A stretch of DNA of 64,000 bases from a virus. Lineage: Duplodnaviria > Caudoviricetes. The notes under the pieces are model-generated. The model was not told the origin of the DNA. It did no database searches and was given only the letters and a program-made list of their open reading frames with translations. The stretch lies in the IMG/VR virus record IMGVR_UViG_3300025679_000005; one strand, written 5' to 3'. A program made the position numbers and the translations under genes. Numbering within the stretch: the stretch's first letter is position 1; every line of letters starts with the position of its first letter. Shown here one piece after another: positions 30,392-38,541 of this stretch.

Positions 30392-31168
30392 GTGCACCAT
30401 CCTGTAATTGCTCGGGCTGAAGCCCTAAGTCGTAGGATCTACGCCTCATTTCCGTGGGGTTACAGGGTCGCGAACCTCTTTCTGAAGCTCGCTTCAGGGT
30501 ACATCGATGCCTTTGGGCGCTTGGTCTACGCTGAGATGATCAAGGCAGGGGTCACGGACATGCCACCCATCAACGGGGAGTCAGCCGAGTCCTACGCGGA
30601 CAAGGTCCAGGGGCCTAGGGGTCCAGATAAGCTTCCCAGGGGTTACGGCTCGGAATTCGGCAAGAGGATCTACGCTTTTTTGATGTCTAAGACCCATAAC
30701 ATCGAGACCACGGAAGAGGTAATGAGTCGGATGATGATGGACATTGCCCGAGGTAAGATCCGCTTCCAGGGCGGCTTTGACCTCAAGCAGTCTGAGGCCT
30801 TGCTCTACAAGACGGCTTTGCGAACGGTCCTCGACATCAAACGTGAGCAGAAGGGTCGGAACAACGATCGTTTGACTCCGGAGTCTTTGACCGATGACAT
30901 GGGTGAGACCATCGACTTGTCAGACCCCAGTGCCTTCAAGCATCTGGATGGGATGATCCCTCAGTCGGAAGTTCACCGCATTGTGGATGAACTTTCAAAG
31001 CTCGATCCCAGAGCTGTAGAGTGGTTCGAGGGTAAGCTGGAAGGGCTCAAGAACAAAGAGATGGCCGCCCAATGGGGGGTGTCTGAGCCTAGGTTCATCC
31101 AGATCGAGAACCTAGTGGAGCCGTTGGTTAAGCAGATACTCATGAAGTACCTGAGGGACGCAGCATGA
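30392..31168 (+). CDS. RNA polymerase sigma-factor-like protein
   Basis: TEEVMSRMMM...ALRTVLDIKR and region-4-like GLKNKEMAAQWGVS HTH. Confidence 0.6.
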   Translation: MHHPVIARAEALSRRIYASFPWGYRVANLFLKLASGYIDAFGRLVYAEMIKAGVTDMPPINGESAESYADKVQGPRGPDKLPRGYGSEFGKRIYAFLMSKTHNIETTEEVMSRMMMDIARGKIRFQGGFDLKQSEALLYKTALRTVLDIKREQKGRNNDRLTPESLTDDMGETIDLSDPSAFKHLDGMIPQSEVHRIVDELSKLDPRAVEWFEGKLEGLKNKEMAAQWGVSEPRFIQIENLVEPLVKQILMKYLRDAA

Positions 31169-31731
31169 AATCGAAGAACGTGGTCGTAAGGTTTCGCCAG
31201 GCAGGGCTGATCAAGCGGGTGGCCGCTCGTTTTGCCATGGAGCACAGCTCGCCTGAGGAGCTGAAGGATTACCTCCACGAGCATCCAGGGGCGGATCCAA
31301 AGAACCACCACGTCGAGAAGAAGGACAACAAGCCCTCTTCAGGTGGGGATGACAAGGCCTCCAAAGAGTTCATGCGTCATGGTCAGAACGCTGAGAAGAA
31401 GCTGAAAGCAATCAGTCGTTTTGCGGAGCAGGCTGACAAGCAGGACGGACCCAAGGCCAAAGAAGCTTTGGACAAGACCCATGCCGCCGGCTCAGAACTA
31501 CACGACTTGGGTGTGCAGCTACACAAAAAGTTGTCGGGTATGAAATCCAAGTCTGCGGACAAGGAATTCGGATACATGAAGGGTAGCTTGAAGAAGCTCG
31601 AAGACGCCCTCAGCGACGCCAAGGAAGGCTCGATGCACGGCTTCTCAGCAAAGGCAATTGCCAAAGCTGCTGATGAGCTGTACGGCGATATCCACCGTGT
31701 GACCGCCCTGGGAGTCTCAGGCAACCTCTGA
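31165..31731 (+). CDS. putative virion/late protein
   Basis: RQAG, KRVAARF and YLHEHPGAD motifs. Confidence 0.6.
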   Translation: MKSKNVVVRFRQAGLIKRVAARFAMEHSSPEELKDYLHEHPGADPKNHHVEKKDNKPSSGGDDKASKEFMRHGQNAEKKLKAISRFAEQADKQDGPKAKEALDKTHAAGSELHDLGVQLHKKLSGMKSKSADKEFGYMKGSLKKLEDALSDAKEGSMHGFSAKAIAKAADELYGDIHRVTALGVSGNL

Positions 31732-31753
31732 CTTCGGTGTATAGACTCCGATC

Positions 31754-34480
31754 ATGGAGTTTCTCAACCAGGTCCTTTTAGGTGATTGCCTCGTTCGTCT
31801 GAAAGAACTGCCGGACTGCACATATGACAGCTGCGTCACTGACGTGCCTTATGGCCTTGCCGACAGAGAGCCCACCCTTGAAGATATCCTGGCATATCTT
31901 CAAGGCGCCGACTCGCTAGGCCCCCTCAAACAGGGTCGCAAGAACTGTTTGAACAGCGTGGTCGAGCTTCCCGTTGTCCCTGAGACGAATCACAGTGATT
32001 CCCAAGTCCCGGAGAATTTGATCTCGTTCCATATCGTAGTGGCGAGTGGCCCTGTTGTGCCATCCGGGACGATCCAACTCGATGATCAGCTTTCTGTCGG
32101 GGAAGAAAAAATCGGTTACAAAGGACCTGTCGTCAAGCTCGATGACATGTTGGTGAATGAAACTCACTCCGAGAAGCCCCAAAGCTTCAACCACGGCCAG
32201 TTCAGTCTTGGGAAAAGCCAGTGCTTTTCCGGATGCATAGAGACGTGCCGCTGCTTTACTCAATCGAGTCCGACCACCTTCAGTGTACTGGTATGGCTTG
32301 ATCACGATCCTCTTACTGAAACCGAATCGTCTACCAAGATAATGACAGGTGGGGGAGCAAAAATTCCCGCCATGCTTACTCTTGATGTGGGAAACATGAC
32401 GGGTGAAATCCGTCCTGCAAACATCACAGGAGAGGCTGACTTTGGTCTGTTTCTCTTGCCCCCTAAGAATGTAGGAGCACTTCCTGGAGCAGGTAGTTTG
32501 TTTTCCCTTGTCCAAGTACTTTTGGGCAGCGAGGTAGGCGATCAAACAGACCGGACAGACTCGTTCGACATTTCTATCCCAGCCGTTGTTTTGGGTCGGT
32601 TCCATTCTCCCAGAGTTGCTCAAAAGGACTTTATGAATAAGGGATGGGAGATTCCTAGTGTCTCCGTCTGGAAAGAGGTCTACCGCATACTCAAGCCAGG
32701 GGCTTATGTCCTCTGCTTCGGGGGGACCCGAACCTTCGACCTCATTTCAATGGGGCTCCGAGCCGCAGGGTTCGAGAACCGCGACACGATCGCTCATGAG
32801 TTCGGCGTTCCTGTTCTTCAGTGGGTCCAAGGGATGGGGATGCCCAAGAGCAGTAACCCAGGTAAGGTTGTCAAGAAAAAGATAGGTTCGTGGGTTGGTT
32901 CGCGAGAACCTACTGATGAACACACAGTAGTAAATGCATACTGTACGTGTCTCAAAGAAACTAGAATGGACTCCGGAATTGGAGGTTCTGTTGGGGACAA
33001 TCTCCGATATGCAGCTAGCAGTTCAGATGGGGCTGCCCAGAACGTCGAGTTCAGAGAATCGCGTACGCCATCATCGACGCACGCTAGGTATAACAGCTCA
33101 CAGAACGAAGCTACATGTAGTGATAGTGTGCCTGACTTGCGGGAAAAAGGCCCGCAAGAGGATGAAAGAGATCCGCAAGAACAAGAAAAACTACTGTTCA
33201 CACCCGTGTGCATCGATGGGGCAGAAGACTCGGGATTCAGAGAGTCTGCGCTACGGGCGAGGGTGGAAAGCTCTGAAGGCTCTGGTGTTACAGCGGGACA
33301 AAGCTTGTCGATGCTGCAAACAGATCCCAAAAAGGACTCTTCACGTGCATCACTTGAAACCGTTCCGATTCGGGGGGACCAACAATTTGGAGAACTTGGT
33401 AGCTCTGTGCGATTCGTGTCATCACAAGATAGAGGCGGCAACGACCAGAATTTTGAGTTCGATACAGGTCGTTGTCACTCTAGAAGAATCTTGCTTGACG
33501 ATACAGGTAGATGGGGTCATGCGAGGGCAAGAGTCTGTTCCTGGTGTGGCTCCTTAGACAAGTCCTTTTACGATAGCCTAGAGAATCTTGGCAGTGCACT
33601 GAAGCCTGCTTGGGAGCCGATTCTGGTCTTTCGCAAGCCGGTAGAAAAGACCCTCGTGGAGAATGTGCTCAAGTACGGGACCGGGGGGATCAACATTGAT
33701 GCTACCCGAGTCAAGCACGCCAGCAAAGACGACTTCGAGAAGCACAAGGCACAGGTTGAGGCCGTCAAAGCCAAAGGCGGTGTCCGAGGAGATTCCTGGA
33801 AGAACTCCTCAGACCTCTCAGGAGCTAACGATGTGCAGGAAGGGGGTAGGTGGCCTGCCAACATCTTGCTCACGCATTCTGAGGGCTGCCAGCACAGCGG
33901 AACCACCAAGGTTAAGGCTCACCCCGCTTGGAACGACAACCGCCCACCATCTGCTTTTACCGGCCCAGAGACCTCTCCGGTGCACCATGCTGAAGAGGAT
34001 GGAACCGAAACCGTGGAAGTTTGGAACTGTGTAGAAGGTTGTCCTGTCCTGGCCTTGGAAACCCAAACCGGGCTCCTCAAGAGCGGGCCCCTGAATCAAG
34101 GAGGAGCCTCCAGGTTTTTCCAGCAGTTCGAAGGCCAAGAACTACCCGAGGCCCCGTTCTTTTACACAGCCAAGCCGTCTAAGAACGAGACGACGTTAGG
34201 CGGGCGCATAGAGAACGAACATCCGACGAAGAAGCCTATTGCTCTCATGAAGTGGCTCATTCGATTGGTCACACGAAAGGGGGGACTCACCATTGATCCC
34301 TACTGCGGGTCCGGGTCCACTCTCCACGCAGCCATCGAAGAAGGCGTCAACTTCACGGGAATTGAGAGGGACGAGCCCTCCTACAAGACCTCGGTGGAGC
34401 GTGTCACACTTGTAGCGAAATTGTACGAGGAAGCCCATGTCCAACGAGACCTCTTTGACCTTGCGATGTCGAATGACTGA
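31754..34480 (+). CDS. beta-class N4/N6 DNA methyltransferase with two in-frame insertions
   Basis: GDCL, TDVPYG, RILKPG, LKPAWEPI, HPTKKP, DPYCGSGST all in one 908-codon frame. Confidence 0.9.
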   Translation: MEFLNQVLLGDCLVRLKELPDCTYDSCVTDVPYGLADREPTLEDILAYLQGADSLGPLKQGRKNCLNSVVELPVVPETNHSDSQVPENLISFHIVVASGPVVPSGTIQLDDQLSVGEEKIGYKGPVVKLDDMLVNETHSEKPQSFNHGQFSLGKSQCFSGCIETCRCFTQSSPTTFSVLVWLDHDPLTETESSTKIMTGGGAKIPAMLTLDVGNMTGEIRPANITGEADFGLFLLPPKNVGALPGAGSLFSLVQVLLGSEVGDQTDRTDSFDISIPAVVLGRFHSPRVAQKDFMNKGWEIPSVSVWKEVYRILKPGAYVLCFGGTRTFDLISMGLRAAGFENRDTIAHEFGVPVLQWVQGMGMPKSSNPGKVVKKKIGSWVGSREPTDEHTVVNAYCTCLKETRMDSGIGGSVGDNLRYAASSSDGAAQNVEFRESRTPSSTHARYNSSQNEATCSDSVPDLREKGPQEDERDPQEQEKLLFTPVCIDGAEDSGFRESALRARVESSEGSGVTAGQSLSMLQTDPKKDSSRASLETVPIRGDQQFGELGSSVRFVSSQDRGGNDQNFEFDTGRCHSRRILLDDTGRWGHARARVCSWCGSLDKSFYDSLENLGSALKPAWEPILVFRKPVEKTLVENVLKYGTGGINIDATRVKHASKDDFEKHKAQVEAVKAKGGVRGDSWKNSSDLSGANDVQEGGRWPANILLTHSEGCQHSGTTKVKAHPAWNDNRPPSAFTGPETSPVHHAEEDGTETVEVWNCVEGCPVLALETQTGLLKSGPLNQGGASRFFQQFEGQELPEAPFFYTAKPSKNETTLGGRIENEHPTKKPIALMKWLIRLVTRKGGLTIDPYCGSGSTLHAAIEEGVNFTGIERDEPSYKTSVERVTLVAKLYEEAHVQRDLFDLAMSND
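31916..32623 (-). CDS. DUF559/Vsr-like PD-(D/E)xK endonuclease nested antisense in the MTase
   Basis: Zn motifs (CPVC, CSRKC, CDVC, CSPTC) then PKTE...DFFF...IIELD...WH. Confidence 0.85.
   Translation of the reverse strand: MSNSGRMEPTQNNGWDRNVERVCPVCLIAYLAAQKYLDKGKQTTCSRKCSYILRGQEKQTKVSLSCDVCRTDFTRHVSHIKSKHGGNFCSPTCHYLGRRFGFSKRIVIKPYQYTEGGRTRLSKAAARLYASGKALAFPKTELAVVEALGLLGVSFIHQHVIELDDRSFVTDFFFPDRKLIIELDRPGWHNRATRHYDMERDQILRDLGITVIRLRDNGKLDHAVQTVLATLFEGA
32934..33557 (+). CDS. HNH endonuclease nested in the +1 frame of the MTase
   Basis: CRCC...HVHHLKP...NNLENLVALCDSCH. Confidence 0.88.
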   Translation: MHTVRVSKKLEWTPELEVLLGTISDMQLAVQMGLPRTSSSENRVRHHRRTLGITAHRTKLHVVIVCLTCGKKARKRMKEIRKNKKNYCSHPCASMGQKTRDSESLRYGRGWKALKALVLQRDKACRCCKQIPKRTLHVHHLKPFRFGGTNNLENLVALCDSCHHKIEAATTRILSSIQVVVTLEESCLTIQVDGVMRGQESVPGVAP

Positions 34481-34973
34481 CCCTCTTGTGAGGTTTGTAG
34501 GTTTGGAGGACAGAGTGTTCAGCCAACCATTCACGGTCATCGATCCCCAGGGCTCGGCGTGGGGAATTGCGTCGGACAAGATCTGGTTCGTAGCCTCCAG
34601 AGGTAAGCACTTTGCTCGCTTTAAGGGTACTATGGATTCTCTGTCCTCAGTTCTTAAGTTGTTGAAGGCAGAACCTTCGGAGTTCATCGAGGCCCTATCC
34701 TCGGGAAAGTCCGTTGTTGAGGGATCCCCTATAGTTTCGATCTTAGGGGTCCCCGTCAGCCAAGACCGCTTGAACACCCTGATCGAGGCCTTCCCTTGTA
34801 GGATCCAGGTGTGGAATTCCTCAGCCTATTTAGGGGTACCTAGCCTAGGGTTCTATTCCAAGGAATGGCGAGCCTTTTTGATGGGCTATGAGAACGTCAT
34901 CGGGGAGGTACCTGAGTCCAACATTGAGGTTCAGGACGAGCGAAGCCTGTTCCGCCTTGCAATGGGTTTATAA
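34473..34973 (+). CDS. hypothetical protein
   Basis: Overlaps MTase stop. Confidence 0.6.
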   Translation: MTDPLVRFVGLEDRVFSQPFTVIDPQGSAWGIASDKIWFVASRGKHFARFKGTMDSLSSVLKLLKAEPSEFIEALSSGKSVVEGSPIVSILGVPVSQDRLNTLIEAFPCRIQVWNSSAYLGVPSLGFYSKEWRAFLMGYENVIGEVPESNIEVQDERSLFRLAMGL

Positions 34974-34999
34974 TGTGCTTTTGAGCAAGGGGATTTGAC

Positions 35000-35440
35000 A
35001 TGTCCTCTACCCCTGCCGCAAGAGTGACCATACGTTATGCGGCGGCCCGGCCAATGAAGCCGGAGAAGATGCAGGCCCTTCTCCTCAAGCTCCGGAAGGG
35101 TGCTGAGGGCAGCTTGCGAATGCCAGAGCTGGTGCAGGTCCTGGACTATCTAGGGGGCTACAAGCTCGAAGAGGCCTTGGTGCTTCAGAGTCAGGAACCT
35201 TACAAGGGTGCCAAGAAGGCTTTCTCTGGATCTCTGGCTCAGGTCAAGGCTGAGTGGGAAGAGATCAAGGCCAATGAGGTCAGCACTCTGCCGACTCATC
35301 CAGTGCTGCACAAGGTGTACTATCAGGATGTCGACCCTATCGTGGAAAAGGGTGACGGCACAGCTTACTTCAGAGCACCTTTCGTCCAGCCATTGTGCTC
35401 ACGGAGTCTGCGCTCTGGTTCTGTCGTGACGCCCGTGTAG
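35000..35440 (+). CDS. putative virion/late protein
   Basis: N-term ARVTIRYAAA motif. Confidence 0.55.
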   Translation: MSSTPAARVTIRYAAARPMKPEKMQALLLKLRKGAEGSLRMPELVQVLDYLGGYKLEEALVLQSQEPYKGAKKAFSGSLAQVKAEWEEIKANEVSTLPTHPVLHKVYYQDVDPIVEKGDGTAYFRAPFVQPLCSRSLRSGSVVTPV

Positions 35441-35523
35441 AGCAGCGTGGCATCGTTCGTGATGATGTAGACGAACCAGGCAGCATTCGTTATCTGAGGC
35501 AATACTTCACTTGTGCTCATTTA

Positions 35524-36144
35524 ATGGGTATGAGGCTGATAGATATTTCAGGACAGGTCTTTGGACGGTTGACAGTCATTAGGAAGTCTGAAGCACCCTC
35601 CATGTGGGAGTGTCTTTGTTCTTGCGGCACAACCAAGTTATTCACAGGTCCTAATTTGCGCACTGGAAATACCACTTCGTGTGGTTGCTTGCATAGAGAA
35701 AAGTTAGCGGCCTCCAACACAAGTCTGAAGTCCCTCGTGGAGCCATGGCTTGCAGACATGAACCTCTATGTTCGCAAGGTAGGCTATCGTCGGCAGCGAG
35801 GGAAGTTAGGTTCCAATCAATTTGCCTCTGTGGAAGGTAGCCCAGTATCTACTCACCCCTCCAATCATTGGGCACTAGACTTAGAGGCCTACACTAGTTT
35901 GGTGACTGGTATTTGTCATTATTGTGGGAGACCTCCTAATCAATTGCCCAAAGGTGCAAACATGAACCCCAGCTTAAGACGTAATGGCATCGACCGTATG
36001 GACAATACCAGGGGGTATGAACCGGACAATTGTGTATCGTGCTGTGCTTCGTGCAACAGAGAAAAAAGAGCACAGACCTTTGAAGTGTTCGTTGAAAATA
36101 CTAAGCGGCGCTACGAGCACCTAAAGACCAAAGGCTTGCTATAA
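35524..36144 (+). CDS. HNH-type homing endonuclease
   Basis: DISGQVFGRLTV...SCGC; CHYC...GIDRMDNTRGY...NCVSCCASCN. Confidence 0.85.
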   Translation: MGMRLIDISGQVFGRLTVIRKSEAPSMWECLCSCGTTKLFTGPNLRTGNTTSCGCLHREKLAASNTSLKSLVEPWLADMNLYVRKVGYRRQRGKLGSNQFASVEGSPVSTHPSNHWALDLEAYTSLVTGICHYCGRPPNQLPKGANMNPSLRRNGIDRMDNTRGYEPDNCVSCCASCNREKRAQTFEVFVENTKRRYEHLKTKGLL

Positions 36145-37863: not shown

Positions 37864-37905
37864 CCTTAAATGGGTGTCTTAATCTGCTTGTAAACCGATC
37901 CTAGT

Positions 37906-38541
37906 ATGCAAAGGGATCGACAGCTACACTCAGATTACACCACTCTGAAGATGAGGATTAGGCACAAGAGGTTGAAGCAACGAGCAGTCGACTATAAGGG
38001 CGGCAAGTGTGAGACCTGCGGATATGACAAATGTCTGTCCGCTTTGGAATTCCACCACACCGATCCAAATGAGAAAGACTTCGGGATAGCTTCTTCCACC
38101 AGATCTTGGGAAAGTGTCAAAGCAGAACTGATCAAGTGTAAGATGCTGTGTTCCAATTGTCACAGGGAAGAGCATGAACGGCTGACGGACTCTAAGCATG
38201 AAGAGCTTACCGTGAAGGTAAGGGAAGTCATACCAGAGAGGCCACCGGGGTTAAAAGCAGTCAGTCACTACTGCCTTGTTTGCAAAAAGGTTTTTGAGAC
38301 AGATGAGCCTGAACGCAAATTTTGCAGCACACTATGTACTCACAAAGATCAGGAAGTTACGAGCTGGCCCAGCGATTCTGAGCTGGCCCAAATAGTGTGG
38401 CAGATGCCTGTGAGTGCTGTCGCAAAGCAACTGAATGTCTCCGACAAAGCTATTTCCAAACGATGTAAACTGAGAGGCATAGAGACTCCAGGTAGAGGTT
38501 ACTGGCAACGACAACGGGTGTATAACTCAATGGTAGAGTAG
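37906..38541 (+). CDS. HNH endonuclease with C-terminal HTH
   Basis: CETCG...FHH...CSNCH; WPSDSEL...GYW tail; 3' end overlaps tRNA-Lys. Confidence 0.88.
   Translation: MQRDRQLHSDYTTLKMRIRHKRLKQRAVDYKGGKCETCGYDKCLSALEFHHTDPNEKDFGIASSTRSWESVKAELIKCKMLCSNCHREEHERLTDSKHEELTVKVREVIPERPPGLKAVSHYCLVCKKVFETDEPERKFCSTLCTHKDQEVTSWPSDSELAQIVWQMPVSAVAKQLNVSDKAISKRCKLRGIETPGRGYWQRQRVYNSMVE

Follow-up and report, generated by a model that had tools for sequence, protein, structure and literature searches.

A ShiLan-type HNH element with a selected stop-free host frame in a predicted DNA methylase gene of an uncultured peat phage

How can a phage gene harbor two complete nuclease genes and nevertheless be open from its start codon to its stop codon? 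This question is raised by an open reading frame (ORF) of 908 codons in a stretch of 64,000 nucleotides (nt), here called the window, which is part of the 155-kb IMG/VR record IMGVR_UViG_3300025679_000005 (estimated to be ~32% complete). The ORF starts with ATG and codes for a predicted N6/N4 DNA methyltransferase (hereafter methylase), and two nuclease genes are nested in it, an antisense gene of the DUF559/Vsr-like type and a sense gene of the HNH type. A preliminary description of the locus had noted a complete HNH gene of 207 amino acids (aa) in the +1 frame with no methylase stop codon across it, and the ORF list as well as the Pfam and PHROG matches bear this out. Here we report that the methylase frame across the HNH gene is kept open by selection and that the selected frame changes within the inserted DNA. 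Judged by its sequence the insert is a ShiLan-type hidden HNH element, that is, a new and distant member of an already described kind in a very different phage. The features on which the argument is built are the following.

31754..34480, + strand: methylase ORF, open through both inserts (ORF list; match to Pfam N6_N4_Mtase PF01555 at 1.1e-24; the model of a relative resembles CcrM, M.BceJIV, M.RsrI and M.MboIIA)
32906..33574, no strand assigned: insert B, ShiLan-type element, ~669 nt, methylase aa 385-607 (alignments with the uninvaded methylases L007 and L006; DNA of Rufus compared with Molly)
32934..33557, + strand: putative HNH homing-type endonuclease gene (PF01844, PF14279; phrog_1271, phrog_589)
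32942..32950, + strand: methylase-frame CxC (Cys397 and Cys399) marking the 5' end of insert B, conserved without exception in 19 of 19 nested loci, codons toggling between TGC and TGT
32975..33517, + strand: interior of insert B with HNH-frame periodicity only, methylase aa 408-588 (codon-position identities; predicted disorder, with a predicted local distance difference test score, pLDDT, of ~25-37)
33536..33547, + strand: methylase-frame CxxC (Cys595 and Cys598) marking the 3' end of insert B, conserved without exception in 19 of 19 nested loci, overlapping the last HNH codons

The product of the 908-codon ORF is predicted to be a beta-class enzyme. In this class a motif IV of the (D/N/S)PPY type precedes a motif I of the FxGxG type, and the same order is found here, with DVPY at the N end as motif IV (a form that is also present in the locus L101) and DPYCGSGST near the C end as motif I. 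The HNH ORF runs from an ATG to a TAG and is shifted to the +1 frame relative to the methylase, as (32934-31754) mod 3 equals 1. Its 207-aa product fits an HNH endonuclease of the PF01844 family with the predicted beta-beta-alpha-Me motif of His, Asn and His and flanking Cys pairs: it matches HNH in Pfam (5.5e-8) and in addition HNH_5, it matches the HNH families of PHROG at 3e-18, the residues H140, N150, N154, H163, C125, C128, C159 and C162 are invariant in 27 sequences, and its profile resembles the HNH domains of McrA and IscB in the PDB. Insert B stands where uninvaded methylases have a short loop, between the blocks GFPKS and GTALKP, and the insertion site can also be seen at the DNA level by comparing the uninvaded Rufus with the invaded Molly. 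Only 28 nt before and 17 nt after the HNH ORF belong to the insert. Its length is a multiple of three, and it would add a loop of ~223 aa to the methylase. The flanking peptides quoted in the preliminary description, ...KVVKKKIG and SLENLGSALKPAWEP, are present, and the alignments with L014, L007 and L006 confirm that conserved methylase blocks flank both inserts of the gene.

The ShiLan domain entered the literature as a puzzling mobile insertion free of stop codons (Gosselin et al. 2023, PMC9957025) and was later recognized as an out-of-frame "hidden" HNH endonuclease with undetectable intron and intein features (Arsenault, Gosselin & Gogarten 2025, PMC11855218). When the 908-aa protein was compared with phage records by tblastn, SG4, Optimus, Tarkin, StellaBean, Molly and others aligned in one piece across the insert. 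In StellaBean (gp97/gp98) and Molly (gp60/gp61) a methylase and a nested HNH protein of 208 aa are annotated in the same +1 frame, and SG4 shares this frame. The HNH protein of the window is 49% identical over its full length to the nested HNH proteins of StellaBean, Molly and SG4, and the insertion site between GFPKS and GTALKP equals the one in the mycobacteriophages. This comparison used mycobacteriophage relatives of the known element; the record of phage ShiLan itself was not among them. We take the mycobacteriophages compared to belong to the clusters E, A1 and F1, which are the clusters named in the ShiLan papers. Insert B is absent from L007, L006, L101 and L102 and present in L014, and this patchy distribution points to mobility.

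The open methylase frame is maintained by selection, as the preliminary description had argued. Across the HNH gene it contains 0 stop codons. Synonymous resampling of the HNH gene produced on average ~9 methylase-frame stops, and none of 20,000 resamples was stop-free, which is of the same order as the chance estimate of 5e-5 made earlier. A stop in the methylase frame requires an HNH codon ending in T that is followed by a codon starting with AA, AG or GA, and T is avoided at these very sites. Considering the HNH codons that have a T-ending synonym, the codon before AA, AG or GA ends in T in 0 of 32 cases compared with 43 of 129 cases elsewhere (p = 1.3e-5), and for codons of the form NNY there are 0 T and 13 C at the sites at risk versus 43 T and 25 C at the other sites. 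The same avoidance is repeated in nine further loci, which include the near-identical pairs L001/L003 and L017/L019 and otherwise have HNH identities of 46-78%. To our reading this codon-level demonstration of selection on the host frame is the first for a ShiLan-type element.

The relatives agree with these results. A metagenome scan with the HNH alignment gave 20 full-length loci of the family, 18 of which have zero stops in the methylase frame versus 3-30 in the other alternative frame, and in 16 of the 20 the open frame runs on into a methylase homologous to that of the window. All 17 non-redundant nested relatives are free of methylase-frame stops, and all 48 more distant HNH loci from the same scan, which serve as outgroup, have at least one stop in the corresponding frame. 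When 1.84 billion representatives were searched exhaustively, the in-frame insert peptide turned up 29 additional clusters (at 50% identity or less) with proteins of 504-981 aa, all of them N6_N4 methylases. A word-based search with this peptide returned only the query protein itself, the relatives surfacing in the alignment-based and exhaustive searches, and a single-protein scan of viral contigs found nothing. The frame is open in every intact relative; had it been generally interrupted, the idea of selection would have failed. The decayed methylase of L027 has one stop in frame, and in L026 (same place as L015) the methylase body is gone, stops are present and the cysteine motifs are lost. 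In L034 and L035 the HNH gene is frameshifted.

At L026:2734-3618 (same place as L015 and L016) a remnant of the methylase N terminus, in which ...TDPPYHL can still be read, is joined to the HNH ORF in the HNH frame, and this arrangement is a decayed or domesticated state of the element. A free-standing copy at L018:2961-3740 has no flanking methylase and lies in a bacterial chromosomal context with H-NS, YkuD and DUF1236 neighbours.

In order to see which frame is selected in which part of the insert we aligned the codons of 17 non-redundant nested members along the methylase frame and determined the identity at each codon position. Up to ~aa 375 the third position of the methylase codons is the most variable one and hence selection acts on the methylase frame. 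Between aa 408 and 588 the first methylase position, which corresponds to the third HNH position, is the most variable one and the aa identity in the methylase frame is only 0.16-0.47; thus, the interior of the insert is constrained only as HNH. The methylase periodicity returns from aa 589, although the HNH ORF extends to aa 602, and at aa 613-641 the identity amounts to 0.62-0.86 at codon positions 1 and 2 versus 0.30-0.41 at position 3. Selection in the methylase frame is therefore found at both ends of the insert and selection in the HNH frame alone in its interior, a map that appears not to have been published previously.

The two ends that are selected as methylase carry the CxC and CxxC motifs. 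Cys397, Cys399, Cys595 and Cys598 are present in 19 of 19 aligned nested loci, on par with the motif residues of the methylase, and all four positions are found in 27 of 29 library representatives. The cysteine codons alternate between TGC and TGT, a change that is silent in the methylase and swaps Ala and Val in the HNH frame, and the HNH-frame synonymous site preceding the cysteine codons is always T. The loop of uninvaded methylases is devoid of cysteines. This invariant in-frame pair CxC...CxxC at the insert ends is a candidate signature of the element and appears not to have been published before either. Possibly it is a zinc clasp closing the loop at its base. An AlphaFold model of the full-length invaded relative P0135, built from an alignment of 40 rows, is consistent with such a role: it shows a confident CcrM-like core with pLDDT ~70-98 over most of its ordered part and <50 in several loops, a disordered insert interior (pLDDT ~34), and confidently modelled insert ends (pLDDT 70-83), where a helix precedes CxC and a beta-hairpin leads up to CxxC as its end. 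A complex prediction with the two insert-end peptides and Zn scored 0.05 and speaks neither for nor against the clasp.

The methylase gene contains a second insert, for which the boundaries follow from the comparison with its closest methylase homologue L014 (YLQGAD..KTGDFMGKDW in the window and YLQGADSL[...]KDFMNKGW in L014).

31913..32626, no strand assigned: insert A, ~714 nt, methylase aa 54-291, absent from L014
31916..32623, - strand: putative DUF559/Vsr-like PD-(D/E)xK nuclease gene with N-terminal zinc ribbons (PF04480, 1.8e-9), filling nearly all of insert A

The DUF559 gene is antisense to the methylase and in codon register with it, so that methylase stops would appear as TTA, CTA and TCA codons in the nuclease gene. 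None of these is used among its 23 Leu and 14 Ser codons, where 6.0 would be expected (P = 0.0014). Homologues with 50-53% identity (L101:2501-3199 and L102:1434-2117) are nested alike after motif IV in other N6_N4 methylases, again with an open frame. The methylases of L101 and L102 are without insert B, and that of L014 has insert B and an intein and is without insert A; thus, both inserts move independently. The earlier claim of like behaviour by two unrelated nuclease folds within one gene is upheld: HNH is sense and in +1, DUF559/Vsr-like is antisense and in register, and both leave the methylase frame free of stops. By all signs the putative antisense element uses the same open-frame strategy as the HNH element in the same gene.

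We suggest the following course of events. A free-standing-style HNH gene with almost no flanking DNA would have invaded the loop between GFPKS and GTALKP of a methylase. The element would be "frame-transparent" for two reasons: it is a multiple of three long, and the HNH codons would be chosen such that the methylase frame never meets a stop. The ribosome would therefore read the methylase straight through. In the added loop of ~223 aa the interior would arise as a by-product of the HNH frame, hydrophilic, free of constraint and probably disordered. The ends of the loop are selected in the methylase frame, and there CxC...CxxC would bind zinc and staple the base of the loop, leaving the methylase able to fold. 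Translation of the HNH protein would start internally, at the ATG at 32934, and the protein would cut uninvaded methylase alleles during co-infection, whereupon repair would copy the element into them. As a whole we regard this explanation, a frame-transparent homing element of the ShiLan type, as probable. With regard to the further proposal that selection keeps an active 908-aa enzyme, the selected open frame is borne out, and for the activity we infer it from the catalytic motifs, the purifying selection on the flanks and the conserved in-frame cysteines.

Four points weigh against this explanation. No recognisable Shine-Dalgarno sequence or promoter precedes the HNH ATG at 32934. AlphaFold gave a poor model of aa 292-908 of the window's own protein (mean pLDDT 46). 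The copy in L018 keeps the stop-free frame and both cysteine motifs without a methylase, and hence the trait may outlast or precede the residence in a methylase or serve the element in another way. Finally, the only sequencing run with the locus is one of DNA. As to the first point, most genes of the same phage are likewise without a Shine-Dalgarno sequence. A scan for promoters and terminators found nothing above the shuffled expectation and nothing before the HNH gene.

Two observations on expression signals may be added. The motif AATCNACTTGTAA occurs on the + strand at 37881, 39071, 45219 and 54359, ~13 nt upstream of the ATGs at 37906, 39097, 45244 and 54384, and looser copies stand before 43857 and 60313. 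It may serve as a phage promoter whose transcripts have very short leaders, and it is absent upstream of the HNH gene. In actinophage copies of the element (L001:1715-1753; L012:2468-2503) GAGGAA precedes the HNH ATG by 6 nt, the element has an AT-rich 5' end within a genome of 63% GC, and the HNH ATG lies inside the conserved methylase-frame R-Y-G. In the 2025 paper (PMC11855218) a ribosome-binding site is stated to be undetectable.

Other explanations have to be weighed against the frame-transparent homing element. The frame could be open only to keep ribosomes on the mRNA, either to prevent polarity of the Rho type or for coupling to the gene at 34437, and the methylase itself could be inactive. 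In fact the methylase ORF overlaps the next ORF (34437..34973), and methylases of the same family are dispensable in related phages. However, the flanks of invaded alleles are under strong purifying selection, as seen above at aa 613-641, the catalytic motifs are intact, and the frame is broken where the methylase is a pseudogene. In addition, the avoidance of polarity would not call for the protein-level conservation of the four insert-end cysteines. We therefore regard this explanation as improbable, though it fares best among the alternatives.

A self-splicing intron (group I, group II or of a new kind) that carries the HNH ORF and is removed from the mRNA would make the open frame irrelevant. 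HNH genes are frequent in the group I introns of phages, and among mycobacteriophages there are known introns whose ends are unusual (cited in PMC11855218). On the other side, the region 31000-35500 gave no match in Rfam at E<=1, RNAweasel and MFannot were negative on the homologous ShiLan element in the published analyses, and the 28 nt and 17 nt outside the HNH ORF leave no non-coding room for a ribozyme. All parts of insert B show coding periodicity in one frame or the other, and an intron would need neither the avoidance of stops at synonymous sites nor invariant cysteine codons in the host frame. An intron is thus very unlikely, and it appears that the insert is not spliced. The same holds for an intein, which we rejected: the in-frame insert peptide has no match in Pfam and PHROG, a Hint domain included, and the insert alignment has no intein-type C/S...HN ends, the genuine intein of L014 looking quite different. 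This intein belongs to the closest methylase homologue (L014:2017-4797), which has the HNH element at the same site and the intein in the HPTKKP motif with C...HN|T ends. A further intein was seen in L006 (LR756508.1 282430-290528), a 484-kb uncultured phage with four consecutive paralogous beta-class methylase genes; it sits in the first of them at WVYG|C...HN|SGFPKN, adjoining the site of the HNH element.

We give just as little credence to the possibility that the in-frame peptide of 223 aa is a genuine new methylase domain, for example for DNA binding, that was overprinted on the HNH gene. The conserved cysteine motifs and the predicted structure of the insert ends would fit such a domain, but the interior (aa 408-588) varies by the HNH frame only, with the low methylase-frame identity given above, is predicted to be disordered and matches no family in Pfam and PHROG. 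Chance or base composition as the cause of the open frame, to which the likewise open 207-codon antisense ORF 32818..33441 of the window might lend some color, is ruled out by the resampling, by the stops in all outgroup HNH loci and by the antisense frames, which are stop-free in none of 17 relatives. This antisense ORF was also considered as a third gene and rejected, since the antisense frames have stops in the window and in all 16 nested relatives examined and are never stop-free in relatives.

The locus itself is well supported. A Logan contig assembled independently from this peat sample has 0 differences over 31000-35500 at a depth of 84, and an assembly artefact can thus be dismissed. 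The methylase protein is also encoded on a 466-kb contig and the sample is a peat metagenome, which argues for a huge phage of ~470 kb. A megablast search with 24 kb against phage records gave no match, and an insert-free variant of the locus was not found in the single sequencing run holding it. One kb downstream of the methylase a free-standing gene of the HNH/endonuclease VII-like type was noted (35395-36144, + strand; phrog_374 at 1.2e-21, phrog_1035 at 5.9e-17), which is the third homing-type nuclease gene within 5 kb.

The ShiLan-type element appears as an old, widespread and actively selected design that extends beyond mycobacteriophages and reaches huge phages of uncultured hosts. To what was known of it we add the codon-level proof of selection, the map of the frame switch, a candidate clasp, and a gene that is occupied by this element and an antisense DUF559 element at once. 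If true, a cysteine clasp under a disordered loop would be a mechanism for tolerating an insertion of 223 residues beside the target-recognition region. One could go further and propose that the element encodes its own four-cysteine zinc clasp in the host frame, with CxC at its 5' end and CxxC at its 3' end holding the two loop ends to each other. Combined with stop-free overprinting this would be a third general way by which a homing endonuclease gene stays harmless in a region essential to the fold, a kind of "structural splicing" that needs neither ribozyme nor intein. It would be common to >45 diverged methylase alleles, ranging from those of mycobacteriophages to those of huge phages, and would have a parallel in the antisense DUF559 element of the same gene. 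This we advance tentatively and lean slightly against it. As gene callers split or drop such methylases, too few nested pairs are reported. To protein engineering the element offers a natural example of a portable and tolerated loop insertion.

When compared with known systems, the insert is closest to the ShiLan domain. Both have in common the homologous HNH protein, the methylase family, the insertion loop and the relative frame, as well as the stop-free host frame, the lack of an intron or intein signature and a disordered in-frame peptide. They differ in the host, which is a mycobacteriophage in case of ShiLan and an uncultured huge peat phage here, and in that the element described here has an HNH gene starting with ATG without a Shine-Dalgarno sequence and shares its gene with an antisense DUF559 element. 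Selection at the codon level, the frame switch, the CxC...CxxC pair and the antisense DUF559 class are mentioned in neither of the two ShiLan papers (PMC9957025, PMC11855218).

Homing genes in group I introns and inteins, for example I-HmuI and the inteins in the methylases of ShiLan and L014, are alike in being selfish nuclease genes with patchy distribution in a conserved gene that is kept usable. In contrast to these, the insert described here would stay in the protein, with nothing removed from RNA or protein, and its silence would be achieved by stop-free overprinting and probably by a structural clasp. In phage Aeh1 the gene nrdA is reportedly split by the free-standing HNH gene mobE (Friedrich et al. 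2007). This system resembles ours in having an intron-less HNH gene within a coding sequence whose function is retained; in Aeh1 two polypeptides reassemble, whereas the methylase would be one continuous polypeptide. The methylases CcrM, M.BceJIV, M.RsrI and M.MboIIA (PDB 6PBD, 8URK, 1EG2 and 1G60), finally, have the fold and the motif order that are predicted for the host enzyme, but they are without an insert after motif IV and have a short loop in the place of the 223 extra residues.

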